From the NCBI GenBank assembly GCA_016783445.1, contig JADHWO010000002.1, positions 25,464 to 89,463 on the forward strand: a stretch of 64,000 nucleotides of DNA. The letters run 5' to 3'. This stretch comes from Candidatus Aminicenantes bacterium. Lineage in GTDB: Bacteria > Acidobacteriota > Aminicenantia > Aminicenantales > Aminicenantaceae. Shown piece after piece: positions 1 to 60,315 of the stretch. Numbering within the stretch: the first letter of the stretch is position 1; each line of letters opens with the position of its first letter. The notes beneath the pieces are model-generated. The model was not told the origin of the DNA and made no database searches. It saw only the letters and a list, made by a program, of their open reading frames with translations. The translations under genes were made by a program, and so were the position numbers.

Positions 1-426
1 ATCGATCTCCAGAAAGATGCTTCTATTAAACCACTGGGAACAGGTCAGGATTTGCTCTCACTTTTAGCAAGACCGGTACAAGGCCCTCCTCTCAGCGATG
101 CCAGGAGTGCTTCAGCTGATCTTTTTTTCGAGATTTCCAACAACGACAGGTTCTTCCGTATCGGTCAAAAAGTAAGCGTTTCGCTTTTACAGAAATCTCC
201 AGAGGATAGCCTTGTTGTGCCCATTTCAGCAATCCTGTATGACATCAACGGCGGGAGTTGGGTGTATACAAAAGTTGCTCCTCACGTCTACTCACGCCGT
301 CGTGTTGAAGTGAGCCATATCGTGAATGATTTTGTTGTTTTAGCTCGTGGTTTAAAAGTTGGTGATCAAGTGGTTGTCGCTGGAGCAGCTGAAATTTTTG
401 GAACTGAATTTGGAGTGGGAAAATGA
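1..426 (+). CDS. RND efflux membrane-fusion (periplasmic adaptor) protein, C-terminal part; the 5' end lies outside the window
   Basis: The frame is open from base 1. The C-terminal sequence is HlyD/MFP-like ([21 protein letters not shown]...). The stop overlaps the start of the downstream RND permease (ATGA at 423-426). Confidence 0.7.
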
Positions 427-3400
427 TGAAATGGCTCGTATCAACCTCTCTCCGTCTACGTGTGGCGATTGTAGTCCTTACAGTGGTCTTGCTAATTGCC
501 GGTTCGCATATTGTCAGCAGGGCTCGTTTCGATGTATTCCCGGAATTTGCGCCGCCTCTGGTTGAAGTCCAGACTGAAGTGCCCGGACTTTCAACATCCG
601 AAGTTGAAGTTTTAGTGACAGTGCCGATTGAGAATGCTCTTAATGGTGTCTCTTGGTTGCAGAAAGTGCGCTCAAAGTCTGTGCTTGGCCTCTCTTCCGT
701 TGTGCTTTATTTTGAAGAGGGCTCTGATTTAATGGAGGCACGACAGCTCGTCCAGGAACGTATAACTCAACTCGCGGAACGATTGCCGGCAGTGGCTAAA
801 GCACCGGTCATACTTTCTCCACTATCCTCCACCAGCCGCGTCCTGAAAATCGGTATGTCTTCAGAAAAACTGTCTCAAGTGGAAATGACGACTGTCGCCA
901 AGTGGACGATTCGCCCACGGCTTATGGCGATTCCTGGTGTAGCCAATGTCGCTATCTGGGGGCAGCGGGACCGCCAGATTCAAGTGCTCATTGATCCGAA
1001 CCATTTATACACCCATGAAGTAACTACAAACGACATTGTCCGCGCTGCTCAGGAAGCAGTACAAATCAGTAGCGGTGGATTTATTGATACACCGAATCAG
1101 AGACTTGCGATTGCTCATACACTGTCTGTTCAATCACCGGAAGATTTATCCCATGTGCCAGTTGCTATCCGTAACGGCGTGCCATTAGAATTGGGTGATC
1201 TGGCGGAACTCGTTGAAGGATTCCCACCTCCGATAGGGGATGCGGTGATAAACGATGGCCCCGGAATATTACTTATTGTGGAAAAGCAGCCCTGGGGGAA
1301 TACCCTTGAGGTGACGCAGAAAATTGAGGATGTTTTAGATGCGCTGCGTCCTGGCCTCAAAGATATAGAAATTGATTCTACAATATTTCGGCCAGCAACT
1401 TTTATCGAGATGTCGCTCAGCAATCTTAATCGTGCTTTGCTCATCGGATGTGTGTTGGTGATTGCAGTGCTGGCCTTCTTTCTCAACGACTGGCGCACTG
1501 CTTTGATCAGTGCTCTTGCGATCCCAACTTCACTGATTATTGCTGCACTCATATTGAACTATCGGGGTGGAACCATTAACACCATGGTTCTTGCCGGCCT
1601 TATAATTGCCCTTGGCGTGCTTGTAGATGATGCAATCATCGTTGTCGAGAATATCATGCGGCGTCTTCGAATCAATAAGACATCCGGAAATCCTGACTCG
1701 GTCTTTAAGGTTGTGCTCAACGCTTCTCTGGAAGTGCGGAGTGCGGTTATGTTTGGCAGCGTGATTGTTGTTCTTGTGCTTATGCCTGTGTTTTTCCTTC
1801 AAGGATTATCAGGTGCATTTTTCCGTCCCTTGGCGTTGTCCTGTGTTTTGGCTATATTATCTTCCTTGTTAGTAGCGTTGACCCTCACTCCGGCACTCTC
1901 TATGATGCTTTTGCCCCGGGCAGTAGAGCGCAAGCAATCTCCTTTCCTGTTGTGGCTTAAAACGAGATATGAGGCGATATTACCTAAATTGATAACCCAA
2001 CCGAGAAAAACTTTGGCTATTACAGCCAGTGCTCTTGTTCTAACTTTGGCGGTCATTCCTTTTCTGGGCGAAGAGTTCCTCCCTAATTTTAAAGAATATG
2101 ATTTTCTGATGCATTGGGTTGAAAAACCGGGTACATCTTTACAAGCAATGGAAAGGATCACTGTGCGTGTAAGCAAAGAACTTCGCTCTATCCCGGGGGT
2201 TCGGAATTTTGGAGCACATATCGGCCGGGCAGAAGTTTCTGATGAAGTTGTGGGTCCAAATTTTACAGAACTCTGGATCAGCCTCGATCAGGATGTAAAT
2301 TATGGAAAGATTGTAGGTAAAATTCAAGAAGTTGTTGACGGGTATCCAGGCTTATACCGCGATTTGCTGACTTATTTGCGTGAGCGGATTAAGGAGGTTT
2401 TAACAGGTACCGCCGCAACACTCGTTGTGCGCATTTACGGTGAAAATCTTGATATTCTACGCCAAAAAGCTGAGGAGGTGCGAGCCGCAATTGCTGAAAC
2501 AGAGGGAGTTATCGACTTAAAAGTACAACCGCAAATCATGGTACCGCAGGTGGAGGTGCATTTTCGCCCAGAAGCTGCTGTCCAGTTTGGATTAACAGCA
2601 GGCGAAGTCAGACGTGTGGTCACACTTTTGATGAAGGGAACTAAGGTTGGAGAATTTTATGAAGACCAGAACATATTTGATGTGGTTGTTTGGGGCGCCC
2701 AGCACATACGTTCCAACATAGAAACACTGCGTTCATTGAGAATAGAGACACCCACTGGGGGTTTGGTCCCCTTAAACGAAGTAGCAGATGTTTTTATAGC
2801 CCCGACTCCGAATCAAATTACGCGTGAGTCGGCATCTCGTTATACTGAGGTGACCTGCAATGTGCGAGGTCGCGACCTTGGAAGTGTTGCCCGGGAAATC
2901 GAGAGCAAAGTGCAGAAGATTCCCTTTGCTCGAGGTTATCATCCAGAGTTTTTAGGGGAATATGCTGCTCAGAGAGCATCCAGGCAGCGGATTTTAGCCC
3001 TCTCTGTTTTTGTACTCATCGGTATCTTTTTGATCCTGTACACAGATTTTGGGTCTTCCAGGCTGGCATTATTGGTCATTGCTGGATTGCCTTTTGCTTT
3101 AATCGGTGGTGTTCTTTCTGCCATTATAAGTGGGGGAGTGCTTTCACTTGGGTCTCTTATAGGATTTATTACAGTATTTGGTGTAGCTGCAAGAAATAGC
3201 ATTATGCTCATCAGTCATTATAAACATCTGCAGCTAAAAGAAGGTTATTCTTTTAGCATCGATTTGATTATACAGGGAGCCAAAGAGCGGCTTGCGCCTA
3301 TCTTAATGACGGCATTAACAACAGCTCTTGCACTTCTTCCAATCGTAATTGGAGGAAATCGCCCCGGACAGGAGATTGAACATCCCATGGCTTTGGTAAT

Positions 3401-3494
3401 TTTAGGAGGTTTAGTCAGTTCTACTTTGCTCAACTTGCTGGTGATGCCAATACTTTACTGGAAATTCGGACGAGTAAAAAAAATAAATGAATAA
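423..3494 (+). CDS. Heavy-metal-efflux RND permease, CusA/CzcA family
   Basis: 1023 aa. The N-terminus [21 protein letters not shown] is typical of CzcA/CusA. There are 12 predicted TM segments with two large periplasmic loops. It is translationally coupled to the upstream adaptor gene. Confidence 0.9.
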
Positions 3495-3549
3495 AAAAAC
3501 AAGAGAAGGAGGCGTTTCTCTATATTTTTAATATTGTGGGCTTGATTCA

Positions 3550-5261
3550 GAGGCTGTCTCAAAACTCAACATATAGTATAATATATTGTGTTACTGATTA
3601 ACATAGAAACAAGAGGAATGGGGAAGAGCAATGAGCAATGAGATAAAGGCAGATTATGATCAACAATATGTTTTACCTCCCTCATTAGAAGATTGGGTAC
3701 CTGAGGATCATCCGGTTAGATTCATAAGGATGTTTGTAGATTCAATGGATTTAGAGGGAATGGGATTTCGAGAGAGGGAGAGTGAAGAGGGGCGTCCGAA
3801 TTACTCAAATGATATGCTTTTAAAGATATGGTTACACGGTTATTTCGAGAAGATCTACAGTACGCGCAGCTTGGAGAAGGCCTGCAAAGTCCAGCTGCCT
3901 TTGATCTGGCTAACTGGGATGCACTACCCTGATCATAATACACTTTGGCGATTTTTCCGGAATAACCGCAAGGTGCTAAAAAAGGTATTTGTTCACTCTG
4001 TAAAGGTTGCCTTAAAGGGTGATCTGGTAGGTTTAGTTCTTCAGGCGATAGACGGCACAAAAATAGTTGCGGATGCTTCTCGGAGGCGTTCACTTCATTG
4101 GAAAAACCTAAAAGCTCTCTTAGGGAAGCTGGAAGAGTCATTAGATGATGTATTTGATGAGATAGAGGAGAACGAAGAGAAGGAGAGTTGTGATCCTGGA
4201 TATAAGCTTCCTTTGAGATTGCAAGATAAGGAGGAGCTTGAGAGATTTATAAGCGACGGCATAAAGGAGCTTTCCCAGGATGAGAAGAGATCCTTGAAGG
4301 AAGAAGTAGAGGAAGGCTTGGATGAATTAGCTGAGGGAGAGACAGAGCATTTAAATCTCACTGATAGTGAATCAAGGATGATGAAGAATGGGAGGCAGAT
4401 TGATTTTTGTTATAATGCGCAGGCTGTGATAGATGAGAAGAAGCAGGTTATTGTAGCAGCTTCAGTGACATCAGAGGGATTGGATAACCACCAGTTAACA
4501 GGGATGCTTGATGAGGCAAAGGAGAATACTGGGGGGATTCCAGAGGAGACGATAAGTGACAGCGGGTATTTTTCAGGGGAGGAACTTAAAAAAGCCGAGG
4601 AGAAAGGGTATTCCGTATTGGTAAATATTCCGGCAAATGTGGGCAGTTATCCTGCTAAAAAAGATGATTCATTCGGTAAGAAGAAATTTATTTATGACTC
4701 AGAGAAAAATGTATACATATGTCCGAAAGGCTGCAGCTTAATTTTTGAGAAAGAGAGTAAAAGGGAGAGATACAAGTCAAGGATTTATAGATGTAAGCAA
4801 GCAAAAGACTGTGCATTTCGTTTCCAATGCAGTAAGGATAAACGAGGAAGGTCAATAGAGAGAACACCATATGATGAATGTATTCTCAGGCAGGTCGAGA
4901 AACAAAAAGATGCAGGGAAGAAGGAATTGCTTAGTAGAAGGAAGAAGATCGCTGAGCCTGTATTCGGATGGATAAAAAGAAATAATAAATTTTCTAGATG
5001 GACCTTTAGAGGGCTAGGATCAGTAGATGCACAGTGGCAATTGCTGTGTACAACAGTGAATCTGAAGAAGCTCTTCAGTAGATGGGTAGATGGAGTCTAT
5101 GTATTTGCCCTTTAAATGAAGAATATACGAGACTTTTTAAGCTTTAAAAAAGAATTTATTTTATCCAGGCGATGATAATATCAAGTTTCCTCTCAAATAA
5201 TTATTTATCCCTCTATTTTGAATAAAAATGATGAATTATAAACAAATTATGAGACAGCCTC
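3550..5261 (+). mobile_element. Insertion sequence, IS5/IS1182 superfamily (IS1182-like), 1712 bp. It has a 12-bp perfect terminal IR and a 4-bp TTCA target-site duplication.
   Basis: The left IR is GAGGCTGTCTCA at 3550-3561 and the right IR is TGAGACAGCCTC at 5250-5261. TTCA occurs at 3546-3549 and 5262-5265. A single transposase ORF lies inside. The flanks rebuild the palindrome gggcttgattca|tcaagccc. Confidence 0.8.
3631..5115 (+). CDS. Transposase, IS5/IS1182 family, DDE type
   Basis: The N-terminus LPPSLEDWVPEDHPVRFI matches the InsH-N/DUF772-like domain of IS5/IS1182 transposases. The C-terminus is Cys-rich (CPKGC...CKQAKDC...FQC), as in IS1182-family transposases. Confidence 0.85.
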   Translation: MSNEIKADYDQQYVLPPSLEDWVPEDHPVRFIRMFVDSMDLEGMGFRERESEEGRPNYSNDMLLKIWLHGYFEKIYSTRSLEKACKVQLPLIWLTGMHYPDHNTLWRFFRNNRKVLKKVFVHSVKVALKGDLVGLVLQAIDGTKIVADASRRRSLHWKNLKALLGKLEESLDDVFDEIEENEEKESCDPGYKLPLRLQDKEELERFISDGIKELSQDEKRSLKEEVEEGLDELAEGETEHLNLTDSESRMMKNGRQIDFCYNAQAVIDEKKQVIVAASVTSEGLDNHQLTGMLDEAKENTGGIPEETISDSGYFSGEELKKAEEKGYSVLVNIPANVGSYPAKKDDSFGKKKFIYDSEKNVYICPKGCSLIFEKESKRERYKSRIYRCKQAKDCAFRFQCSKDKRGRSIERTPYDECILRQVEKQKDAGKKELLSRRKKIAEPVFGWIKRNNKFSRWTFRGLGSVDAQWQLLCTTVNLKKLFSRWVDGVYVFAL

Positions 5262-5387
5262 TTCATCAAGCCCCTACGTGAAAAACAGGATTGCCGCGGC
5301 TCTTCGGACTCGTTATGACATTTGATAAAATGGGGCCTGTCCCTATAACTTATCCCTATTATTATGAGAAGGATCCCTGAGTATAAA

Positions 5388-8300
5388 TTAGATATTGGAG
5401 TTTTTGAAACCAAGGAAGGACTTGACCCTGGAAGTTACGGAATCCGAGATAGAATAGAATGTGGGCAAAAAGATCAGCGTGAAAAAGGTTGATGTGGTCA
5501 GCCCGCCGATGATTGCCACAGAAATGGGTGCCCACATCTGTGCCCTACGCCCCACTGCCTCAAAAAATTGGGGCAGCAAAAAGGGGAGAGCCAGCGGCAG
5601 TACTCCAAAAATGGTGGTAATGGCTGTCATAACGATCGGCCGCATCCTGTCCTTGCCTCCCTGCACGATGGACTCATTCTTGCCCATCCCGGATTTACGC
5701 AGTATCCGGATGTGGTCGATGAGGATGATGCCATTGTTCACTACAATCCCGAATAGAACCAGAAGTCCCAGATAGGAGGTTGTATTTAGTGTAATGTTCG
5801 TTATAGAGAAGAGGATAGCTACTCCAAACAATGCCAGAGGCACTGTCATCAAGATCGTTAACGGATGCACAAAAGACTCAAAAAGCGAAGCCATGATGAT
5901 ATAGATAAAAATAAGAGCGAGAATAATCGCAAGGCCGGACTCCCCCTGGGATTCCTGGAAACGCCTCCACCCGGATCCAAGGCTCCATGAGTAACCGTCA
6001 GGGAATTGAATTGTGTTCATGACCCTGCCGATGTCGTTGGATATGCCCATCATCCCCTGGGATTTGGTGTTGATCCGGATCATCAATTTTGATTGTTTAT
6101 TCTCCTTACGGATAGAGGTTGATCCCATCCTGTAAGTGATGTTTGATACTGCGGAGACTGGAATCCTTGTGGACTGGGTTGGAAGGCTGATATTCCGGAG
6201 GTCTTCTTCAGAGAACCCGTCCTCTCTCCGGATCTTTAAGATGATATCGATCTCCCGGTTTTCAGTTTTAAATTTTCCGATGGGCCGTTCAGATAGAGAA
6301 GAGGAAATAGTCCGTGCAACCATTTGACTGCTTACTCCTGAGCTTTCTGCTTTCTGACGGTCTACCTCGACCATGATTTGTGTGTCTCCACCCTCCAGAT
6401 CACTTGTTACATCCTCCACATTCTCGACTGTCCGTAGCTTTTCGATAACCATTGGAGCAAGCTCGGTCAGTTTAGTGTAGTCGAGGCCGATGAGTTCCAC
6501 TGTGATTCCTCTGTGGTGCCCGCCACGGCCAAAACGTTGCGCGTATTCGTAGGTAATACCGGCTTGTATGGGCAGCAGTTCTTTGAGTCTTTCTTTAATC
6601 TCGGTCACCGACATTCCTTTATCTTCCAGAGCCAACTCAAGTCCCCCGCTGAATCGTCCCTGCCGCATGCGCCTCACACCGAACTCTGTCGTTAGATATT
6701 TGATAGATAGCTCTTCCTTCCGGGACAAGAGTATTTCCTCGTAGTTCTTGAAGAGGACTTTCATTTGTTCCAGAGTAAAACTGCGGGGCATATAGACTGA
6801 GATATCGATCTCCCGCTCGTCACTGGTAGCCATATATTCCTGTTCGATGTTTTTGAAGATCTGGAATGAAGTAAAAAAGATTCCAACAGCCAGACCAACC
6901 ACGAAAAGCTTGGTTTTCCAGTTCTTGATAGTGAAACTAATGATACGCTCATAGACAGCCGTTAGTTTTACCAGCCAGCGGGCTTTTTCCTTTGCTTTGC
7001 CGGCAAGCAGTCGACTTCCAGCCAGAGGGATGAACGAGAGGGAAACGATCAGAGAGGCGATTAACGCCAGGGAGATGGTTAATGCAAAGTCTTTTAAGAA
7101 GCGGCCGAATCCAGACTGGGACATGAAGCTTAACGAGATGAACACAACCAGAGTTGTTAAAGTTGAGGCAGTGACAGCCATAGCTACTTCACTTGCTCCT
7201 GTTATGGAGGCCTTTAGCGGGGAGTATTGTTTTTCCTGCCGAAGCCGGAAGATATTCTCCAGGACCACAACACTGTTATCCACAAGCATTCCCACAGCCA
7301 TCATCAGTCCGCTGAGAGAAATGATGTTGATAGTGATGTCCGCACTAAATACAGTACGGTAGAGGTACATGAGGCTGAAGGTGAACACTATAGCCATGGG
7401 GATGGCGATGGCGATGATGATGGTGCTCCGGAATTTTCTCAGGAAGAAGAGCAGGACGAAAACAGCCATAAGGCCGCCGATAATGCCGGAAATAGTAAGG
7501 TCTTTGAGGCTCCTGAGGATGTCTTCCGACTGATCTCGGTAGAAAATAACATTCATATTCTGGAGCTCGGGTTCCGTCTCCTTGATGCTTGCCATAATGT
7601 CTTTGACGTTGTTGCATACATCCACGATATTAGCATTAGATGCACGGTAGATCTGGAAACGTACGGTTTCATTCCCGTCCAGGCGGTTGAATTCCTCTTT
7701 GACAGGATAATCGTAAGTCACTCGAGCGACATCGGCAATGGTCAGTCCTTTGTTGCTGACAGGAAGGCTTTTTACATCTTCCAGGATCTTGAGTTCTCCT
7801 GGAACGCGAGCCACATAGCGCATGGGGCCCTCTTCTACGTACCCGGCTGAAATATTTATGTTGTTGTTGCGTATGGTGCTGATCAGGTCGGTTATGCGGA
7901 TGGAGGATGAATAGAAAACCTCGGGCTTAAGGTAAATGGTCAGAACTTTGTTGCGGATCCCACGGATATCAACGTTGGCCACTCCTTGAATCCGTTCCAG
8001 TTGCTGTGTGATGTAGTTTTCCGACCAGTAATACAGGTTATCCAGGTCTCCGGGTAAAGCTAAGCTGAAGTTGATCACAGGCCGGTCATTAAATGAAAAA
8101 CGGCGGATGCGGATATTCTCGATGTCGTCAGGAAGGTCATTACGGACGAGGTCGATCTTGTCACGGATCTCCATAGTGACCAGATCCATGTTGGTCCCTC
8201 CCTTGAACTGCATGTGGATGTTCGAGGACGATGAGGAGGAAGTGGAGCTGAGGCTTTCCAGATTGTTTATTGTGGCCAGTACGTCTTCCAGGGGCCTTGT

Positions 8301-8489
8301 GATAATGCGTTCCACCTCTTCTGGAGAAGAAGAAGGGTAGGGGATCTGTACCATGAGTCCGGGGAAAGATGTGTCAGGCATCATTTCCAGGGGAAGTTTA
8401 AGGATTGATATCACCCCGATGGTGATAAAGATGAGCATGGCTACAATGATAGAAACCGGTTTTTTTATGGCAAATTCAGGTAGATTCAT
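5388..8489 (-). CDS. RND multidrug efflux permease (HAE1 family), distal paralog of a tandem pair, MdtC-like
   Basis: 1033 aa with AcrB-like topology. It starts MNLPEFAIKKPVS. There is a 4-bp overlap with the upstream RND gene. Confidence 0.9.
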   Translation of the reverse strand: MNLPEFAIKKPVSIIVAMLIFITIGVISILKLPLEMMPDTSFPGLMVQIPYPSSSPEEVERIITRPLEDVLATINNLESLSSTSSSSSSNIHMQFKGGTNMDLVTMEIRDKIDLVRNDLPDDIENIRIRRFSFNDRPVINFSLALPGDLDNLYYWSENYITQQLERIQGVANVDIRGIRNKVLTIYLKPEVFYSSSIRITDLISTIRNNNINISAGYVEEGPMRYVARVPGELKILEDVKSLPVSNKGLTIADVARVTYDYPVKEEFNRLDGNETVRFQIYRASNANIVDVCNNVKDIMASIKETEPELQNMNVIFYRDQSEDILRSLKDLTISGIIGGLMAVFVLLFFLRKFRSTIIIAIAIPMAIVFTFSLMYLYRTVFSADITINIISLSGLMMAVGMLVDNSVVVLENIFRLRQEKQYSPLKASITGASEVAMAVTASTLTTLVVFISLSFMSQSGFGRFLKDFALTISLALIASLIVSLSFIPLAGSRLLAGKAKEKARWLVKLTAVYERIISFTIKNWKTKLFVVGLAVGIFFTSFQIFKNIEQEYMATSDEREIDISVYMPRSFTLEQMKVLFKNYEEILLSRKEELSIKYLTTEFGVRRMRQGRFSGGLELALEDKGMSVTEIKERLKELLPIQAGITYEYAQRFGRGGHHRGITVELIGLDYTKLTELAPMVIEKLRTVENVEDVTSDLEGGDTQIMVEVDRQKAESSGVSSQMVARTISSSLSERPIGKFKTENREIDIILKIRREDGFSEEDLRNISLPTQSTRIPVSAVSNITYRMGSTSIRKENKQSKLMIRINTKSQGMMGISNDIGRVMNTIQFPDGYSWSLGSGWRRFQESQGESGLAIILALIFIYIIMASLFESFVHPLTILMTVPLALFGVAILFSITNITLNTTSYLGLLVLFGIVVNNGIILIDHIRILRKSGMGKNESIVQGGKDRMRPIVMTAITTIFGVLPLALPFLLPQFFEAVGRRAQMWAPISVAIIGGLTTSTFFTLIFLPTFYSISDSVTSRVKSFLGFKNSNI

Positions 8490-11400
8490 GGTTTACTAGT
8501 TTTTGCTTTATCAAGAGAGAGTGTCGCTTTTGCGTTTTTGAGATGGCGCATCAAGCGGCTTTCCTTCTCTTCTGGTACCAAAGGGTCTCTGACAACCGCA
8601 TTGTAGGCCAGGGGAATAAAGATCAGTGTTAGAAATGTTCCAAAGATCAATCCTCCGATCAATGTCAGAGCCAGGGGGATGCGAATCTCGAATCCCTCGT
8701 TAAAATCCAGTGCCATGGGCGTAAGCCCCAACACTGTTGTGATCGTGGTCATCAGGATTGGCCGCCACCTTACCTGGGCGGCGGTTTTAATGGCTTCCAC
8801 TTTCCTCATCCCTTTTTTCTGCAGCTGTCCGATGTAGTCCACCAGCACGATTGCATTGTTCACGATGATTCCGGAGAGAATAATCAGGGCAATGAGGACA
8901 ATCACGTTGATTGACATGCTGAATATGAGCCCGACGATCACCACGCCTATAATGCCAAGCGGAATGGTGAACATGATGATAAATGGTTTTCTGAAGGATT
9001 CAAACTGGGAAGCCATGACCAGATAAACTAAAAACACGGCCAGTAAGATGGCGAAGATCATAGAGGAAAAGGCCACGTCTTGCTCCATGCTTTGTCCGGC
9101 CAGATAGATCGAACATTCTGGACCAAAATCTATGGATGCGACTTCTACATTGACTTTTTCCTTGGCTTCATCCAGGGGGATCCCTGAGATATTCCCGGTA
9201 ATGACTGCTGATTTTTGCTGGAGTATCCGGCGGATTTCTGCAGGTCCTTCCTGGATATGGATATCGGCCAGCGCTTTTAAAGGAACCATCACACCCAGAC
9301 CATTGCGGATGTTGATTCTGCTGATCTTATCCACTCTGTCGCGGGAATCTTCAGAAAGCCGGACCCGAATATCTATCTCCCGGTCACTCTCGATGAACCG
9401 TGTGGCAACTTCGCCTTCAATTTTATTCCTGAGCTGTGCTCCCACCGAGTTAATAGTCATATTCTGCGAAGCCAGAACGGCCCGGTTAAAGATGATCTGG
9501 ATTTCCGGATAGCCTTCTTCCATACTGGATTTTAGATCGATGATACCGTCTATGCCCCGGAGTTTCCCCAGGAGTTCGTCAGAGACCTGTTTAATCACAT
9601 CCAGGTTGTTGCTTGATACTACTATCTCAAGCGGGGCTTTGAAGGAGAAGAGCCTTGGTTTGTAAACCTTGATTTTAGTAGTGGGAAACTTTTCCAGGTC
9701 AGCTCTAACCCGGTCTATGATACGGTCTTCCTTTTTGCCAAGGATGCCCGACTTCAAGCGGATAGTGAATTCAGAGAGGTTTTCCCGCTCTTCCTGGAAG
9801 GAGATGCCTCCTCTGGACCCTTTTCCGATAAGCTCGTAGATGCTGTCGATTTCGTCATAATTTTTTAATGTCCCGGATATATCTGCGATAATAGCAGCGT
9901 TTTCTTTGAGAGAGGTTCCGGGCTTGAACTCGACGTTGATCAAGAATTCGCCTTGGGAGATGACCGGGATTAATTCCTGGCCCATGAAGCGTGTCATGAA
10001 TATAGCGATGACAAAGAGTGCGAGGACAGAAACAATAATGATTTTTCTGCGTTTCATAGAGGCATCTTGTGTCTTTTTATAGCCGAGATAGAATTGGTTA
10101 TAAATCTTATCAATTGGCTTGAATAGAGTTTTTAATACTTTGCTCAGCGGCTCTTTTGCGTTTTCTCGACGTAAAACCGCACTGAACATGGGAACGAGTG
10201 TCAGAGAAACAACTAAAGAAGCCAGCAGAGAGTAAGTCACTGTCAGGGCCATGTCTTTAAACAGCTGGCCGGCGATTCCCTCAACGAACACGATGGGGAA
10301 AAACACAGCCACTGTTGTGAATGTGGATGCGGTCACGGCTCCTGCTACCTCGGATGTTCCCTGCAAGGCGGACTTGTAGAGTCCTTCACCCTGTTCCCTG
10401 TAACGCTGGATAGACTCCAGCACCACGATGGAATTGTCTACCAGCATCCCGATCCCGAGCGCCAATCCACCAAGAGAGATAATATTCAGGGAGATATTCG
10501 AGGAATACATAAGGAAGAATGTTATGACGACTGATATGGGGATGGTTGCCCCGATAATCAGTGTGCTGCGAAAGTTTTTTAAAAAATAAAGCAAGACCAA
10601 AATGGCAAGGATACCGCCAAAAATGGCGGTCTGCTTGACCTCATGGATGGTGTTTTTGATGAATTTGGATTGGTTGGTGATAACCAGATAATCCATGTTC
10701 CGGGGCTTCAGGATATTATCCCGGACCATTTTTAACCTATCGTTTACAGCATTGGCTACTGAGACTGTGTTGGCATCCGCTGCCCGGTAGATGGCAGCTT
10801 CAATACATTCCCGGCCGTTGATCCGGGAGATGACTTTGCGTTCTTTGTGGCCGCGGAACACATCCGCAAGGCTGCCCAGCGTGATCTGTACATCACCCCG
10901 TCTCTCGATGATGATGTCTTTGATTTCCTCGACAGTTTTGAATTGATTGACAGTCCGGACCAGAAACTGGCTGTCTTTCTGTTTCAGGATCCCGGCGGAG
11001 AGATTTACGTTTTCCTGCGCGAGGCGGTTGGCTACAGTGGTGATAGGGATATTAAGAAGGCTGAGCTTTTGTTCGTTGATGTCGATATGAATCTCGTCCT
11101 CCAGACCGCCTGAAATGGAGCAGGCTGCGACTCCCTCTATACTTTCCAGGGCCTGTTTCACTTCTCTTTCAGCGATGTAACGGATGCGAGCCAGATCTGT
11201 CTCGCCGGTCAGGCCCAGTCTCATGATGGGTTCCTGGTTGGGGTCATACCGGAGGATGACCGGTTTGGTGGCGCCCACTGGAAGACGAAGGATGTCCAGT
11301 TTTTCCCTGAGTTTCAGGGTGGCAAAGTCCATGTTGGTGTGCCATGCGAACTCGACCGTAACTTCAGATAACTCCGCTCTTGAGACCGAAGAAATACGAA

Positions 11401-11632
11401 CAACATTATCCACAACGCCGCAGGTCTCTTCAATGGGTTTGGAGATGATGTTCTCTATCTCTGAAGGGGCGGTGCCTGCGTATTCTGTTTTAATGGTGAG
11501 AGTGGGATAAGAGATTTTTGGCAGCAGGTTCAGGTTCAGTTTGGAGTAAGCGATAAGGCCGAAGATGACCGCAGCTGCTGTGAACATAACGATGGACACA
11601 GGACGATTGATGGAAAACTTAACAAGTTTCAT
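8486..11632 (-). CDS. RND multidrug efflux permease (HAE1 family), proximal paralog, MdtB-like
   Basis: 1048 aa. The N-terminus MKLVKFSINRPVS is AcrB/MdtB-like. It overlaps the MFP stop by 4 bp. Confidence 0.9.
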   Translation of the reverse strand: MKLVKFSINRPVSIVMFTAAAVIFGLIAYSKLNLNLLPKISYPTLTIKTEYAGTAPSEIENIISKPIEETCGVVDNVVRISSVSRAELSEVTVEFAWHTNMDFATLKLREKLDILRLPVGATKPVILRYDPNQEPIMRLGLTGETDLARIRYIAEREVKQALESIEGVAACSISGGLEDEIHIDINEQKLSLLNIPITTVANRLAQENVNLSAGILKQKDSQFLVRTVNQFKTVEEIKDIIIERRGDVQITLGSLADVFRGHKERKVISRINGRECIEAAIYRAADANTVSVANAVNDRLKMVRDNILKPRNMDYLVITNQSKFIKNTIHEVKQTAIFGGILAILVLLYFLKNFRSTLIIGATIPISVVITFFLMYSSNISLNIISLGGLALGIGMLVDNSIVVLESIQRYREQGEGLYKSALQGTSEVAGAVTASTFTTVAVFFPIVFVEGIAGQLFKDMALTVTYSLLASLVVSLTLVPMFSAVLRRENAKEPLSKVLKTLFKPIDKIYNQFYLGYKKTQDASMKRRKIIIVSVLALFVIAIFMTRFMGQELIPVISQGEFLINVEFKPGTSLKENAAIIADISGTLKNYDEIDSIYELIGKGSRGGISFQEERENLSEFTIRLKSGILGKKEDRIIDRVRADLEKFPTTKIKVYKPRLFSFKAPLEIVVSSNNLDVIKQVSDELLGKLRGIDGIIDLKSSMEEGYPEIQIIFNRAVLASQNMTINSVGAQLRNKIEGEVATRFIESDREIDIRVRLSEDSRDRVDKISRINIRNGLGVMVPLKALADIHIQEGPAEIRRILQQKSAVITGNISGIPLDEAKEKVNVEVASIDFGPECSIYLAGQSMEQDVAFSSMIFAILLAVFLVYLVMASQFESFRKPFIIMFTIPLGIIGVVIVGLIFSMSINVIVLIALIILSGIIVNNAIVLVDYIGQLQKKGMRKVEAIKTAAQVRWRPILMTTITTVLGLTPMALDFNEGFEIRIPLALTLIGGLIFGTFLTLIFIPLAYNAVVRDPLVPEEKESRLMRHLKNAKATLSLDKAKTSKP

Positions 11633-12909
11633 TGGATCACGTCAACTCGCTGGCCGTCTTTGAGTCCTTCGACTCCAACCACGACTATGACTTCGCCCTC
11701 ATTCAGTCCGTTTGTAACTTCCACGTGGTCTTCCTCGAGGAGTCCGAGAAAGACCTCGCGTTGGGATACCTGGTTCCGATTCATAACAAAGACATAGGTT
11801 TTATTCTGTTTGTAGAGGATGGCTCTTCGCGGGATAACCAGGACATTCTCTTTCATGCCGATGGCAATCCGGACTTCCACGAACATTCCTGGCTTCAGTG
11901 TGAGTGACTCGTCGAGAACCTCGACGGTGACTTTGACTGTCCCTGTCTGGACATCGACCCTGGGATTGATCAGTTTGACATCACCTGTAAACACATTTCC
12001 CTTCAAGACCTCGGTTTTTACCTCGGCGGGCATCCCGATTTTAAGTTTGATGGAGTCGGATGTGGGGACAGACACGCGGATTAACAGGGGCTTAAAATCT
12101 TCGATAGTATAAACCTGCTCGTTGGTGTTGACACGATCGCCCATTTCGATCAGACGCTCGGTGATGTAGCCTTCGGAAAGAGCCCGGATCTTGGTCCAGT
12201 TCAGCTGGAGTTGAAGATTTTTAAAACTCTCCATACGGTCCTGGTAATCGAGCTGCCGTTGTTTATACAGCGCTTCTTGAGTCTGGAAATCCTGTTCGGA
12301 AATGAGATCACGTTTGATCAACTCCTGATTACGGATGAAATTCTTTTCCGCTTCTTCAAGGCTGAGCTTGGCCTGTTCCAGTTGGATCTTTGCCTGTTCG
12401 TAACTGATTTTTATTTCTGTATCATCGAGAAGGGCCAGGATATCATTTTCTTTGACATAGGCGCCTTCTTCTTTAACGATCTTCTGGACATAGGCAGAAA
12501 GACGGGAGAATATTTCAATTTTCCGTTCCGGCTCTACGATGCCGTTAAGAACGAGGTAAGAGTTCAGGTTTTTCCGCTGAACCGGCGCAGAACTCACAGG
12601 AACGGCCTCGCCGCCACTCTGGAACCGGGCAAGGATTTCCGGAATTTGGTCCTTCGGAATGCGTCCGGATTTTATGGCCTCTTTCACCTGGTCGGGGATA
12701 TCAAGTTTATCGATATCAATGTTTTCGCTGCTCTTAGATCCGGGTTTTTGGCCGCTCTTGGCTTGGGCACCTTTATCCGTCTGAGCCTTGCCAGGATTTC
12801 CTTTTTCTGACGGATTCTCCGTCCTGTTTTGGCCGTTGTCCCCGGATTTTCCGCAGCTTATAGTAAAAGCCAGGAGTGCTCCAAGTAAAAAGATGGATAA
12901 TTTTCGCAT
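11629..12909 (-). CDS. RND efflux membrane-fusion lipoprotein (HlyD/MdtA-like)
   Basis: There is a lipoprotein signal (LAFTISCGK). It has coiled-coil, lipoyl and beta-barrel MFP architecture. It is the first gene of the MFP-RND-RND operon. Confidence 0.85.
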   Translation of the reverse strand: MRKLSIFLLGALLAFTISCGKSGDNGQNRTENPSEKGNPGKAQTDKGAQAKSGQKPGSKSSENIDIDKLDIPDQVKEAIKSGRIPKDQIPEILARFQSGGEAVPVSSAPVQRKNLNSYLVLNGIVEPERKIEIFSRLSAYVQKIVKEEGAYVKENDILALLDDTEIKISYEQAKIQLEQAKLSLEEAEKNFIRNQELIKRDLISEQDFQTQEALYKQRQLDYQDRMESFKNLQLQLNWTKIRALSEGYITERLIEMGDRVNTNEQVYTIEDFKPLLIRVSVPTSDSIKLKIGMPAEVKTEVLKGNVFTGDVKLINPRVDVQTGTVKVTVEVLDESLTLKPGMFVEVRIAIGMKENVLVIPRRAILYKQNKTYVFVMNRNQVSQREVFLGLLEEDHVEVTNGLNEGEVIVVVGVEGLKDGQRVDVIQ

Positions 12910-13218
12910 GGTTATTCACCTAAATTATAATCAGTTCATTTCTTCTTGCCGAACGCTTGCTGTATCCGGGTCGATTATTCCGGCTGCTTTCCGAACGGTC
13001 TCGTTTCCTGCGTTATTCGTTTTAATTCGCAGAAACACACTTGTAACGATTCATAAATATTAGACGAAAAAATAAACAATTTCTTCCAAAACTTTCAATA
13101 ATTTCTATATAATTTCTGCAATTCCTATATAACTAAAATTTCAATTTAACTATATATAATATTCTATTCTGCCTCCTGGCACAAGTTGGATTATTTTTGC
13201 GAGGAACATAGAAAATTA

Positions 13219-13388
13219 CCGCGTTGCGCTCGCAATGAGCCACGTAATCTCTTTTTACGTAGGGGCTTGATTCATCTGTAGAGGTTTGATTTATCTGTAG
13301 GGATTTGATTTATCAAACCCACAATTTTTAAATAGATAATTTTCAATCGAATAATCATTTAACGGATTTGAAAAATCAAGCCCCTACA
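13219..13388. repeat. Cluster of REP-like palindromes. One family-2 unit sits at 13219-13251. Three family-1 units and a partner half sit at 13258-13388.
   Basis: The sequence is gtaggggcttgattcatctgtagaggtttgatttatctgtagggatttgatttatcaaaccc ... aaaaatcaagcccctac. Confidence 0.6.
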
Positions 13389-13548
13389 GCTTTATATAAA
13401 TAATGAAGCCTGTCCTCATTATTGTAAAAAAAGTTTTTATTTTATTTGAAATAAAGTAATATTAGGCATAAAATTTATGGGCTATCAAATGTATTTTGAT
13501 AAAACGCTTCTACAGTTAACCTTGATTATTAATTCATATATTAAGATA

Positions 13549-13834
13549 TCGGCAGTTTTTATGAATAATTCAGGTAGACATGGGTTATTCACGAGTTGAG
13601 ATTACCGTAGATGCGAGGCGCAGGGTGTGAAGCTGTGGTTTTCCACCGCGAATGCCCTGCAACGAAGCAGGTTCGGTGAGATCGGCTCGCCTGAAAGGTA
13701 AAAAATGCCGACGTAAAATTAAAATGAGGCCATTGGAGAATGTTTGAATGTTAATATTCAGAAATAATCAACGTAACTGGCTAGTATTTTTGAAGATAAA
13801 AAATGTGTCGGCAGTTTTTATGAATAATTCAGGT
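13549..13834 (+). repeat. Copy A of a roughly 250-bp structured intergenic repeat (MITE or ncRNA-like). It is flanked by 28-bp direct repeats of GTCGGCAGTTTTTATGAATAATTCAGGT.
   Basis: It is about 85 percent identical to 47148-47425, and to the reverse complement of 36522-36758 over the conserved segments. It contains the inverted repeat AAAAAATGCCGAC...GTCGGCAGTTTTT. Confidence 0.7.
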
Positions 13835-13883
13835 TAAATGGAATAGTTATTTCCAAAAATTTACTTTAAAGGAGGGAGAAGGC

Positions 13884-17952: not shown

Positions 17953-18152
17953 CGTAGGGATTTGATTAAATTGCAGGGATTTGATTCATCATACCCGTTA
18001 ATTCTGAATTTGTAGGAGCTTGATTTATCAAGCCCACTTTATTGTTTTGCAGGGATTTGATTCATCAAACCCGTTGATTTTTAAAAAAGGGAATTGGCCT
18101 CAATTTCTTTCTTTTTCTGTCATTGCAAGGAACGAAGTGACGCGGCAATCTC
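17953..18152. repeat. Cluster of four family-1 REP-like palindromes plus one family-2 unit
   Basis: The family-1 units are gtagggatttgattaaattgcaggg, atttgattcatcataccc, gtaggagcttgatttatcaagccc and gcagggatttgattcatcaaaccc. The family-2 unit is tcattgcaaggaacgaagtgacgcggcaatctc at 18119-18152. Confidence 0.6.
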
Positions 18153-20494: not shown

Positions 20495-20507
20495 GATAGA
20501 TGGAATA

Positions 20508-20618
20508 GGGGTCGCGTCTCAACACTTGACATTACAGAAAGAAGTGAGACTGCCGCACTTTGTTCGCAATGACAATAATTAGTGAGATTGCCACGTCACT
20601 GCGTTCCTCGCAATGACA
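20508..20618. repeat. Repeat cluster with one copy of the 26-bp motif (inverted) and two tandem family-2 units
   Basis: The 26-bp motif is ggggtcgcgtctcaacacttgacattac. The family-2 units are gagactgccgcactttgttcgcaatgacaat and gagattgccacgtcactgcgttcctcgcaatgacaat. Confidence 0.6.
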
Positions 20619-35456: not shown

Positions 35457-35482
35457 AATGTCAAATGTTGAGATGCGACCCC
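35457..35482 (+). promoter_or_regulatory. Copy of the 26-bp motif AATGTCAAATGTTGAGATGCGACCCC, in the divergent promoter region
   Basis: The same motif recurs at 46000-46028 and inverted at 20508-20535. Confidence 0.4.
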
Positions 35483-35648
35483 ATTCTTCTTTTATCTTTT
35501 TTGCAAAGATGCCTCCAACTTTGTATAGTATGAGCGTTCGGGTTTTTGACTCGTAATCGGTGAGCCTAAGGGACAGAAACTTGTGGGCAGGCTCTACCGC
35601 AAACCTTGGGTTCTCCCCAGGGTGTAAAGCCTTAAAAAGGAGAAGGGC

Positions 35649-36500: not shown

Positions 36501-36521
36501 ATATACACTTTAAACTAGCGT

Positions 36522-36758
36522 GCATTATTCATAAAAACTGCCGATGCCATCATTCATTCTTTATAATATCTATATCAATCATCGGCATTTTTTACTCTTC
36601 GAGCGAGCCGATATTGTGAGATTGCCGCGTCGCTTCGCTCCTCGCAACGACGTCTGCTTCGTTGCAAAGGATTTGCGGTGGAGAACCACAGCTTCATCCT
36701 TCACGCCTCGCATCTACGGCAACCTCGACTCGTGAATAATGCACGTACGCGTGAATTG
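36522..36758 (-). repeat. Copy B (inverted) of the roughly 250-bp structured repeat. Its internal hairpin plus T-run is placed as a terminator for the upstream gene.
   Basis: The reverse complement aligns to 13583-13834 and 47160-47425. aaaaactgccgatg...catcggcatttttt lies directly after the stop at 36500. Confidence 0.7.
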
Positions 36759-44577: not shown

Positions 44578-45855
44578 TTATAGATGCCATGGTGCACGCA
44601 TGGGTTGAGCGATTAAACGGTTTGCCTCCACATCATTAATGAACCGCTGTTTGTCCGGGTCAAAATGAAGAGGTCTTCCCAATCGCACAGCAATTTTGCT
44701 CAGATTGACGATTGTACAGGAACGATGTCCATTTTCTTCATTTAAGGCAAACTTTTTTCGGGTTCTAACAGCCTTGATAAAGTCGGTCACCTGAGGTTCT
44801 GGGTCAGGAAGAGTAGCCAGTTTTTCTTTTAAATTGGGAATATCGGATTCAAGGCCTTTGAATAACTTTCCATCGGGCCCTTCGATGAACGCTGCATCTT
44901 TATCCTTGTTTTCGCCGTCAAGGATTATTTCACAGCCATCAGCATATTTTAATTGAATCCGGCGCCAGCTTCCACAAGCGTCAGGATGCTGCTGGGGACA
45001 GTCAGCTTCAATTTCGACCGGACTGGTGTCATCTTTGTCAAGAATATATTGAACCGGGTCAAGGTAATGCATACCCATGTCTCCAAGTCCGCCGCCATCA
45101 TAATCCCAGTATCCACGGAATGTGCCGTGAACTCGATGCTTGTTATAAGGTTTATAGGGAGCAGGACCGAGCCAGAAATCATAATCCAGTTCTTTAGGAA
45201 CAGGTTCGGGTTTTAAATTTGTTTCTCCGCTCCAGTAAAATTTCCAGTCAAAACCGGTTATGCCGCTGACCGTAACTTTTAAAGGCCAGCCCAATATGCC
45301 GCTCTGGACCAGTTTTTTTATTGGCTTGACAGTAGTGTCAAAACCGTAGAACTGATCTCTAAATCTGAACCAGGTATTCAGCCTGAAAATTCTTCCATTC
45401 TTCTGCACAGCTTCCACAATTTTTTGTCCTTCGCCGATTGTTCTTGTCATAGGTTTTTCACACCAGATGTCCTTGCCTGCTTCTGCTGCAGCAACGGCGA
45501 TGAGTGCGTGCCAGTGTGGGGGGGTTGGGATATGGACAATGTCAATATCAGACCGCTCAAGGACTTCACGAAAATCCTTATAGCCTGCAACTCCGGGCCC
45601 GGCAATTTTTTGTGCCATGTTTAAATGTTTTTCATCAACATCACATACTGCCAGAAGTTTAGCCCCCGGATAATGAAGGTGCACCCGTCCCATACCGCCT
45701 ACGCCAATTACAGCTTTTGTAAGCTGGTCGCTGGGTGCTGTGTAGCCTGCGCCTCCCAGAACGTAACGTGGCACTATTGTGAGGGCAGCAGTGGCAGATA
45801 TTGTATGCTTAATAAAATCCCTTCGGGTTATTTGTTTTTTTCTTGTCATATCCAT
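44578..45855 (-). CDS. Tat-exported Gfo/Idh/MocA-family oxidoreductase
   Basis: The Tat motif is TRRDFIKHT. The Rossmann segment is KAVIGVGGMG. It is in an operon with the HEAT-DUF1080 gene. Confidence 0.85.
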   Translation of the reverse strand: MDMTRKKQITRRDFIKHTISATAALTIVPRYVLGGAGYTAPSDQLTKAVIGVGGMGRVHLHYPGAKLLAVCDVDEKHLNMAQKIAGPGVAGYKDFREVLERSDIDIVHIPTPPHWHALIAVAAAEAGKDIWCEKPMTRTIGEGQKIVEAVQKNGRIFRLNTWFRFRDQFYGFDTTVKPIKKLVQSGILGWPLKVTVSGITGFDWKFYWSGETNLKPEPVPKELDYDFWLGPAPYKPYNKHRVHGTFRGYWDYDGGGLGDMGMHYLDPVQYILDKDDTSPVEIEADCPQQHPDACGSWRRIQLKYADGCEIILDGENKDKDAAFIEGPDGKLFKGLESDIPNLKEKLATLPDPEPQVTDFIKAVRTRKKFALNEENGHRSCTIVNLSKIAVRLGRPLHFDPDKQRFINDVEANRLIAQPMRAPWHL

Positions 45856-45999
45856 CTCCTGTTTTTTGGAATGTTATGACCGGGTATTTACGGCAAACGC
45901 GGCTCGTTAATAATCCAGGCTATTTTAAGCCAGCATATTATACAGCATTACTATAAGAATTTCTTTTTTTGCATGCAAGAGCTTTCCTCCTTTTTGCTG

Positions 46000-46028
46000 T
46001 AATGTCAAATGTTGAGACGCGACCCCTT
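46000..46028 (+). promoter_or_regulatory. Copy of the 26-bp motif GTAATGTCAAATGTTGAGACGCGACCCC, in the divergent promoter region
   Basis: It lies between the Gfo gene (-, start 45855) and the GHMP kinase gene (+, start 46149). Confidence 0.4.
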
Positions 46029-46148
46029 TTTAACTTTTGCAGCTTTATTTTTTCGATTTTAATAATCCTGAAGACATAATTGATTGGCATACTGTTGTTG
46101 AATATGTAAAATAAGGGACCTTGAGGAATGTCCCTATAGAACAGGAAA

Positions 46149-47144: not shown

Positions 47145-47147
47145 GCT

Positions 47148-47425
47148 GGATTATTCACGAGTAGACGTGAATTATTCACGAGTCGAGATTGCCGCAGATG
47201 CGAGGCGCAGGGTATGAAGCTGTGGTTCTCCACTGCGAATGCGCTGCAACGAAACAGATGCGGTAATACCGGCTCGCCAGGAGGGTAAAAAATGCCGAAA
47301 ATAAAATTAATAATAAGCCCTTGGGAGAATATTTGAATGTTAATTTTGAGAGATAATCAATGTAACAGGTTAATATTTTTAAAAATAAAAAATAGTTTCG
47401 GCAGTTTTTATGAATTGTTCACGAG
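47148..47425 (+). repeat. Copy C of the roughly 250-bp structured repeat. It fills the whole GHMP-dctP intergenic region.
   Basis: It aligns to 13583-13834. It ends ...tcggcagtttttatgaattgttcacgag, immediately before ATG 47426. Confidence 0.7.
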
Positions 47426-57445: not shown

Positions 57446-57650
57446 GAGAGTAAAGCGGTGCGGCAATCTTATAGTTTTCTGTAGGAGCTTGATTCATCAA
57501 ACCCATCTTTGTATTGGGGATTTGGTTTAAATGTAGGTAACATGATGATGTGATGCACCTCCACTGGGATTTGATTCATCAAACCCACAATAGGAAAAGG
57601 ATAGAATAAAATGTTTTTGCCAGGAGCATAACGACGCGGCAATCTCACCT
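57446..57650. repeat. REP cluster with two family-2 units flanking two family-1 palindromes
   Basis: The units are gcggtgcggcaatctta, gtaggagcttgattcatcaaaccc, gggatttgattcatcaaacccac and acgacgcggcaatctcac. Confidence 0.55.
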
Positions 57651-60064: not shown

Positions 60065-60127
60065 CATCTAAAACTTCTTTTTTCCTTTTGACTTAAATAT
60101 TATCCTGCAATATAAAATAAAGATACT

Positions 60128-60273
60128 GAGGGCTTGATAAATCAAGCCTCTACATGAAAGAATAATATGAGATTGCTGTGTTTCGCTTGTAAAAACAAAA
60201 CAAATTGTGAGATTGCCACGCTTCGCTCGCAACAGGCTATGTAATCTCATTGCGAGCGAAGCGTGGCAATCTT
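60128..60273. repeat. One family-1 palindrome plus a perfect 24-bp inverted repeat of family 2 that forms a long hairpin
   Basis: The palindrome is gagggcttgataaatcaagcctctac. The inverted repeat is gagattgccacgcttcgctcgcaa (60209-60232) and ttgcgagcgaagcgtggcaatctt (60250-60273). Confidence 0.6.
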
Positions 60274-60315
60274 CTTCGCTCTTCGTTATGACATTAAATT
60301 TTTAAGGAGGTAAAG

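Follow-up and report, generated by a model that had tools for sequence, protein, structure and literature searches.

The 64-kb stretch of Candidatus Aminicenantes DNA analyzed here (64,000 nucleotides of contig JADHWO010000002.1, hereafter the window) contains three full copies of a short repeat that very probably represents a non-autonomous DNA transposon, one of the miniature inverted-repeat transposable elements (MITEs), carrying a strand-specific module predicted to fold as RNA. The MITE identity is apparent from the element itself, which is short, non-coding and dispersed, with inverted ends, 4-bp target duplications and polymorphism between strains. In addition, the alignment of relatives shows a predicted fold, specific to one strand, that is kept by compensatory change around invariant loops. 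The movement of the element and the function of its RNA are proposed on this basis.

Copies, ends and target duplications of the element

Aligned from end motif to end motif, the full copies comprise (i) copy A at 13579-13833 (+), 255 bp; (ii) copy B at 47166-47423 (+), 258 bp; and (iii) copy C at 36519-36745 (-), a short-hairpin type of 227 bp, its nested insert counted. With a covariance model based on relatives they score 136.5, 130 and 78.4 bits, respectively, the rest of the window remaining at or below 16 bits, and the 17-18-nt end motifs CCTGGATTATTCACGAG and TTTTATGAATAATTCAGG find five matches each in the window at three mismatches or fewer, against about 0.2 by chance. End motifs, alignment and model scores agree with an earlier reading of the same letters (the original prediction), which had placed three related copies at these sites and had drawn the conserved blocks they share as they are seen here.

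Relatives were collected in two scans. The first, with the exact pattern GATGCGAGGCG-N5-9-TGAAGCTGTGG and one genome per species, returned at least 109 loci, from about 34 assemblies (species-level metagenome-assembled genomes, MAGs) among the matches listed. Nearly all hosts among these matches are Candidatus Aminicenantes or Acidobacteriota MAGs, including Ca. Aminicenans sakinawicola, the other labels being several ‘Eubacteriales’ (a default label), one GC-rich Verrucomicrobiota MAG and one Thermodesulfobacteriota; a single MAG holds up to at least 10 of the listed loci. The second scan, of metagenomes, used other conserved segments as anchor (ATTCACGAG-N58-72-AACRAAGCAGATG) and returned at least 120 contigs. 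The first pattern is present in only 13 of 122 matches of this second set, so the first sample had greatly understated the diversity of the family, and ascertainment by the first pattern does not affect the second set. Viral contigs contained no match to the family pattern, and a literature search for an Aminicenantes MITE or non-coding RNA found no description of this family.

The attributes of a MITE recur throughout the relatives. The element measures 188-262 bp overall, with no conserved open reading frame (ORF). Full copies are of two sharply separated sizes, typically about 253 or about 188 bp: the genome set has copies of 252-258 and 193-207 bp, the metagenome set copies of 240-259 and 180-189 bp. 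The 13-nt terminal inverted repeats CCTGGATTATTCA/TGAATAATTCAGG display 747 Watson-Crick, 84 G-T and 40 other positions across 67 elements, and variant ends change jointly on both sides, as seen in the metagenome set and in copy C, where the repeats (CGTGCATTATTCA) are perfect. The flanking 4-mers are direct repeats in 22 of 59 genome-set elements (permutation mean 4.9, maximum 12) and in 25 of 94 metagenome-set elements (permutation 4.8, maximum 13); among the non-palindromic flanks of the genome set, 17 match as a direct repeat and none as an inverted repeat. The commonest target 4-mers, TTAA, TTAG, CTAA and CTAG, are of the YTAR type, and because this target contains stop codons many copies begin within a few bases of a gene end, as exemplified by copy B at the TAG of the GHMP-kinase gene. 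Within the window, TTAA surrounds the composite formed by copy A and its neighboring fragment, AGA surrounds B, and C displays no duplication. The original prediction had offered a MITE as one of its readings and had proposed a search for target duplications at the copy boundaries; 4-bp direct duplications are found family-wide, and the MITE reading is further upheld by the inverted ends, the uniform length, the dispersal in either orientation and the presence/absence polymorphism between strains.

This polymorphism was read from contigs encoding proteins identical to those flanking each copy. At the B site, GCA_014382045.1 and three ENA assemblies, four in all, contain 70 nt against the 313 nt of the window, the element being replaced by a 15-17-nt end remnant, CGTGGATTATTCCCG, with AGA at either side as in the window, and a fifth assembly contains a run of N exactly at the element position. 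The surrounding coding sequence is identical, with five differences in the 40 nt upstream. The ends of the element are also direct repeats of each other because their core, TGAATWATTCA, is palindromic, and the remnant fits either loss by slippage between the ends or gain by conversion from another copy; since the allele without B retains an end remnant, it points to loss or conversion and not to a fresh insertion. At the A site, a related genome has the same composite, with three substitutions, all within the element, and an unsubstituted flank of about 540 nt. The orthologous insertion pair L027/L194 is 86% identical in the core and 79-82% in the flanks and, as the sole informative pair, is not decisive for purifying selection. 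Contigs frequently break inside elements.

Placement is intergenic, with one of 112 copies inside an ORF. Between tandem same-strand genes, 23 copies are co-oriented and 14 anti-oriented, a difference that is not significant, and a further 20 lie between divergent and 16 between convergent genes. Copy B is located between the GHMP-kinase gene and a TRAP-transporter DctP gene, copy C is antisense to both adjoining genes, and the neighbors in the window as a whole (membrane-fusion protein, M14 peptidase, TIM-barrel isomerase-like protein, oxidoreductase, GHMP kinase and TRAP transporter) are housekeeping genes unrelated to one another. Clustering of the ORFs near copies in both locus sets disclosed no recurrent neighbor protein, the only clusters being ABC ATPase paralogues of a generic kind. 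Intervals of 0.9-4 kb bounded by element ends, considered as candidate autonomous parents, contain host genes and no transposases; neither the neighbors nor these intervals present the copies as fragments of a larger coding element, a concern raised by the original prediction. The window contains no tRNA or tmRNA genes, and an origin of the element from either was rejected.

Three smaller pieces accompany the full copies in the window: one mini copy lacking the core, one solo end and one truncated stub. The mini copy (13520-13574, +) comprises a left-end-like CCTTGATTATTAATTCA, a 12-nt filler and the right end TCGGCAGTTTTTATGAATAATTCAGG, and a TAGA spacer (13575-13578) joins it to copy A; the segment 13549-13574, within the overall range given by the original prediction, is the right end of this mini copy and lies outside A proper. 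The junction of right end, TAGA or TGGA, and left end recurs in loci L049, L033 and L108. The TTAA at 13516-13519, the left flank of the composite, equals the TTAA at 13834-13837 and represents a putative 4-bp target-site duplication. Upstream of copy B, a solo left-end-like 17-mer, GCTGGATTATTCACGAG (47145-47161, +), abuts the TAG stop of the GHMP-kinase gene and is followed by a TAGA spacer. The truncated 5' stub, CCTGGATTATTAACGAGCCGCGTTTGCCGTA (45889-45921, -), lies upstream of a Gfo/Idh/MocA gene (44578-45855, -). Such 5'-end stubs, 32-35 nt in length and cut after TTGCCGTA(G), were seen here and at L004:465-497, each lying 25-35 nt upstream of a start codon, the two genomes being unrelated, and a related internal deletion between two GCAGATGC repeats occurs at L025:2376-2440. 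In one subfamily (L014, L027, L028, L029, L038, L076, L077, L081, L090 and L109), about 60 nt of additional conserved sequence (GAAGCGACATTGAAGATTTAGCCTTCGG..GCATGAA..GATC) lie upstream of the left end, the conservation holding across species and at the orthologous pair L027/L194.

Predicted fold of the named strand and its covariation

The predicted fold of the named strand, the one given with each copy, comprises a helix of the paired ends (P0) closing a multi-branch junction with three arms: (i) a 98-nt rod of helices P1-P4 separated by near-invariant, purine-rich internal loops; (ii) a capped hairpin of 3 bp (P5); and (iii) a long AU-rich hairpin whose base stem pairs an A-run with a U-run. 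In copy A, with a fold of -87 kcal/mol (z -5.8 against shuffles), the left terminal inverted repeat CATGGGTTATTCA (13579-13591, +; family consensus CCTGGATTATTCA) provides the 5' strand of P0 and the right one, TGAATAATTCAGG (13821-13833, +), its 3' strand. The conserved core rod spans 13592-13689 (+) and comprises P1 (13592-13599/13682-13689), P2 (13602-13608/13673-13679), P3 (13621-13627/13653-13659) and P4 (13632-13638/13643-13649), together with the conserved loops AGAUGCGAGGCG (13609-13620) and CAACGAAGCAGGU (13660-13672). There follow P5 (13690-13698), CCU-GAA-AGG with compensatory changes, and the long 3' hairpin (13700-13819), which encloses a 94-nt AT-rich variable region and is closed by the base stem AAAAAAUGCCGAC (13700-13712)/GUCGGCAGUUUUU (13807-13819). 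The original prediction had described this inverted repeat, AAAAAATGCCGAC/GTCGGCAGTTTTT, as perfect, with an AT-rich insert of 60-110 nt; the stem has 12 of 13 pairs and one A·G mismatch, and the insert of A has 94 nt, that of B 97 nt and that of C about 33 nt. It had also proposed a covarying stem from a comparison of copies A and B. The covariation is genuine and the assignment to B was mistaken: tgaagga...tcctttg belongs to copy C, and B has cagggta...gcgctg.

A first alignment of 91 core sequences, analyzed with RNAalifold, gave a rod of helices in which 19 of 30 pairs changed on both sides. A curated alignment was restricted to 39 sequences of less than 92% mutual similarity and to 35 pairs (P1-P4, three isolated central pairs and P5). 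Here 95.5% of the pair cells are paired, against 34-43% when the partners are slid by 1-3 columns, both partners change in 21 of the 35 pairs and, in the slid controls, in 7-10, and none of 500 shuffles reaches any of the five measures. The independent metagenome set, 117 unique sequences aligned with MAFFT without structural input, has 96.3% of cells paired against 31-37% for slid controls, and every helix covaries. This includes P4, which the first search pattern had fixed (CG 86, UA 18, AU 6; at further pairs GC 76, AU 34, and GC 41, CG 38, GU 36), and in the same set the central pair 44-84 covaries (GC 63, AU 46). A U52-A76 pair (UA 102, CG 7) lengthens P3. The base stem of the 3' hairpin covaries as well, appearing as GCCGA/TCGGC, GTCGA/TCGAC, GTATGC/GCATAC and TTGCG/CGCAA; the two arms of one copy pair at 10.5 of 12 positions, against 9.1 when arms are swapped between copies. 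The AT-rich region within this hairpin falls into at least three large subfamilies plus singletons, with a nearly constant length. The alignment of about 200 further copies strongly supports a conserved structure with compensatory changes, the support growing as copies were added instead of fading as the original prediction had envisaged for a spurious fold. The judgment of the original prediction that the repeat is non-coding also stands: the pair pattern is incompatible with coding, and no ORF is conserved. A small ORF starting at a conserved AUG after GGUAAAAA was considered and rejected, its length and sequence not being conserved and the AUG appearing as GUG, UUG, CUG or AGC elsewhere.

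In contrast to the stems, the loops hardly vary. Unpaired bases outside both search patterns are 91-100% conserved, including A33, G34, A35, C38, A40, G42 and C43, as well as U52, G53, A54, A55, A75, G104 and A105. The motif GCAGAUGC, present on both strands of the rod, self-pairs through tandem G·A in the predicted fold, the adjoining loops being purine-rich, and there are signs of non-canonical co-variation, with positions 39/88 avoiding A/A and positions 54/74 changing from A/G to C/A. In the most divergent copy, L083 from the GC-rich MAG, all four stems are rebuilt with different sequences and the loops are kept. An alternative pairing of GCGAGGCG with CGGCTCGC was rejected, CGGCUCG pairing instead with the 5' CGAGUCGA as P1, with compensatory changes. 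A search of Rfam 15 gave no match at gathering score in the window, and only noise at E ≤ 10 on A, B and L083.

Strand, level of selection and competing explanations

The wobble pairs indicate the strand under selection. G-U pairs outnumber A-C by 398 to 51 in the independent set, and by about 20:1 in the pair table of the first alignment, and wobble is the majority state at several pairs (U-G 70/117, G-U 70/117 and U-G 52/117). Folding energies favor the named strand over its complement by 22 kcal/mol on average, and in 64 of 65 full copies, and the covariance model scores copy B at 130 bits forward and 11 bits on the reverse strand. Stems that covary, loops that are near-invariant and wobble on one strand only argue together for selection on a folded single strand. 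The likeliest level of this selection would be RNA, most simply a transcript, because wobble, tandem G·A and purine-rich loops are typical of RNA helices. Pairing of the element ends within this RNA is plausible, as whole-element folds consistently pair the two inverted repeats. Covariation within a mobile element implies that the fold matters for the spread or retention of the element, and by itself is no proof of a service to the host.

These features suggest a mechanism in which a DDE-type transposase would move the element in trans, and host transcripts, or a putative promoter, would read through it. The self-closing fold could then act as a compact RNA module altering the stability, processing or read-through of host messages, and the invariant loops probably constitute a putative binding site for a conserved factor, either cellular or transposon-encoded.

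Several observations weigh against this explanation. (i) About 1.4 Mb of related DNA yielded neither an autonomous element nor a transposase with matching ends. (ii) The strains compared offered no naive empty site bearing the target only once. (iii) Consensus scans found no conserved internal or outward promoter and no compact terminator; these scans likewise lend no support to the promoter/terminator cassette that the original prediction had entertained. (iv) The G-U excess in P0, 84 against 6, comes chiefly from two positions. (v) A GC-rich copy, L098:3050-3173, has its conserved loops replaced by a continuous 9-bp helix, UUUCGGUUU/AAGCCGGAA, with the rod shape and outer stems kept. (vi) The orientation relative to genes is unbiased, which poorly fits a purely cis role in messenger RNA, as half of the copies would place the poorly folding strand in the message, and argues against such a role as the whole account. 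Regarding the scans, a promoter candidate inside A, CTGAAA-17-TAAAAT, is not conserved in other subfamilies, and neither A nor B contains a compact G+C-rich stem-loop with a U tract, the U-run following a stem that encloses 33-97 nt.

A tentative possibility, overlapping with the transposon explanation and differing from it in the object selected, is that the conserved rod itself functions as an RNA, with the transposon serving only to carry it. The 98-nt rod might then represent a new class of structured functional RNA riding on a DNA transposon, variously a trans-acting small RNA, a scaffold for a protein or ribonucleoprotein, a guide or cofactor of the transposase, or a new self-cleaving ribozyme. 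The discrete small RNA gene that the original prediction had offered among its readings is likewise a candidate. The likeness to ribozymes is indirect, consisting of a small multi-copy element with invariant loops, and no known ribozyme model matches. In favor of a functional RNA, at least 14 unpaired bases are 91-100% conserved free of ascertainment while all stems covary, co-variation appears non-canonical at 39/88 and 54/74, conservation reaches the GC-rich MAG labeled Verrucomicrobiota with its four rebuilt stems, the orientation is independent of neighboring genes, and the motif is absent from Rfam. Nevertheless, no promoter is carried upstream of the fold, the first base of the element being already paired, nearby genes encode no partner protein, one copy persists with a plain helix in place of its loops, and many copies have insertions or deletions in the rod.

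It is unlikely that the fold matters as single-stranded DNA, either as a hairpin for mobilization or by driving excision or amplification of the slippage type. Selection on one DNA strand would also produce the observed asymmetry, in which G-T is tolerated and A-C is not, and would agree with an orientation independent of genes and with a loss allele of B that resembles slippage between the direct-repeat cores of the two ends. On the other hand, wobble is the majority state at several pairs, the conserved tandem G·A and purine-rich loops typical of RNA helices are costly in DNA hairpins, and the fixed 4-bp duplications and inverted ends fit double-strand DDE transposition, which needs no internal structure.

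Improbable, too, is the notion that the copies are leftover ends of a larger insertion sequence (IS), a leader RNA plus terminus, and not an independently spreading element. Such parents are the usual origin of MITEs, the family includes truncated stubs and solo ends, and the window contains an IS with a DDE transposase; however, more than 200 sampled copies have one or two sharp lengths with both ends present, no end-bounded interval contains a transposase, and the ends of the IS in the window (GGGCTTGATTCAGAGG) are unrelated. Finally, a cis-regulatory leader such as a riboswitch controlling the downstream gene is largely refuted, since, despite conserved loops and covarying stems of suitable architecture, copies A and B upstream of and co-oriented with genes, and a mild excess of co-orientation with the gene downstream (52 to 35), copy C runs antisense to its two neighbors, the informative tandem-gene cases (23 to 14) are not significant, the neighbors have no common function and all four gene-orientation contexts occur, and the copies are numerous within each genome, bear target duplications and vary between strains.

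Kinship with described elements and other repeats of the window

The closest described kind of element is bcr1 of the Bacillus cereus group, a transcribed, MITE-like repeat of about 155 bp in which compensatory changes keep a multi-arm RNA fold (Delihas 2011, PMC3184786). Both are short, non-coding and dispersed, with short direct-repeat flanks and a compensatory multi-arm fold. They differ in phylum, in their unrelated sequences and in the flanks, 5-bp direct repeats in bcr1 against the 4-bp YTAR type here; moreover, dozens of species share the 98-nt rod of the present element and its near-invariant internal loops. Transcription, known for bcr1, is proposed for the present element.

A looser likeness, as small repeats with inverted ends beside genes, is found with Correia (Neisseria), ERIC (enterobacteria) and RUP/BOX/SPRITE (pneumococcus), whose transcripts form long hairpins and are able to affect the stability, processing or termination of mRNA (PMC3184786). 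The RNA of these repeats is essentially one long hairpin arising from the inverted repeats, with conservation explained by recent descent, whereas the structure of the present element is mostly internal, covaries between subfamilies and includes invariant loops, and no promoter or terminator activity can be inferred for it. Processing of the transcripts of these known repeats involves RNase III and RNase E. Regarding transposon ancestry, 4-bp YTAR duplications are typical of IS5-/IS701-type elements, and CC ends with 4-5-bp repeats of IS1380; the 4-bp YTAR-like duplication and ends starting with CC resemble those of MITEs derived from either group, no parent having been found in the about 1.4 Mb of related DNA. 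The omega RNA of TnpB/IscB (HEARO) and the bridge RNA of IS110 are likewise conserved, covarying structured RNAs at a mobile element's end, but they lie beside a nuclease or recombinase gene, in elements without such inverted repeats and 4-bp duplication, and the present element has no linked protein and no Rfam match. A palindrome-associated element of the IS200/IS605 type with omega RNA is ruled out by the inverted ends and duplications and by the lack of a linked protein.

The element is a MITE, a known kind, and the family itself is new, differing from known elements by host phylum, by sequence and, as judged from the alignments, by the depth of conservation of its internal rod. It adds a covariation-backed structured RNA motif, absent from Rfam, with hundreds of copies in the uncultured, globally distributed Aminicenantes/OP8, and it accounts for assembly breaks and N-gaps at these sites. 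If the loops bind a factor or catalyze a reaction, the family would show bacterial MITEs to be capable of distributing a functional RNA module across a genome, and if the rod is an RNA cargo this would be the first known bacterial MITE family with a deeply conserved one, beyond inverted-repeat folding. If not, the family would document selection for a compactly folded transposon transcript and would serve as a negative control for pipelines that discover riboswitches and small RNAs.

The window contains further repeats. A complete-looking IS at 3538-5273, the only one in the window, has 27-nt inverted ends (GGGCTTGATTCAGAGGCTGTCTCAAAA), different from those of the studied element, and encodes a 494-residue transposase (3631-5115, +) with DUF772, DDE_Tnp_1_6 and DDE_Tnp_1 domains; the studied element as an end of this IS is ruled out, the ends being unrelated. 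A second repeat family consists of 19-nt units, TGTAGGGATTTGATTYATC, often in tandem and with a final AAACCCAC, at 13259-13333, 17954-18085, 57462-57599 and 60123-60154. These units resemble the tips of the IS (right tip CATCAAGCCCCTACG) and are probably solo-end or MITE derivatives of it.

A 35-nt GC-rich hairpin repeat, TTGCGAGGAGCGAAGCGACGCGGCAATCTC, resembling REP sequences, occurs at 13200-13239, 18118-18152, 36616-36651, 57612-57646 and 60246-60285, and also in L012, L055, L018, L031 and L098, usually adjoining the 19-nt family. The instance at 36616-36651 (-) is nested in copy C, where it displaces the 3' strand of P2 and provides the substitute GCGGCAAUCUC; half of the related contigs at the C site lack it and have the canonical P2 strand instead, being otherwise identical. 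Insertion of this repeat at the same site, the 3' strand of P2, was observed in several genomes.

Three paralogous ORFs of about 1030-1050 residues, at 423-3494 (+), 5388-8489 (-) and 8486-11632 (-), adjoin a HlyD/CusB-type gene (11629-12909, -). A 1048-residue paralogue is annotated as ACR_tran on a related contig, and the IS at 3538-5273 lies between the first two paralogues. A third short repeat, AATGTCAAATGTTGAGACGCGACCCC, is present in three intergenic regions, at 20504-20544 (-), 35457-35485 and 46001-46029, and contains a TTGACA-like hexamer.

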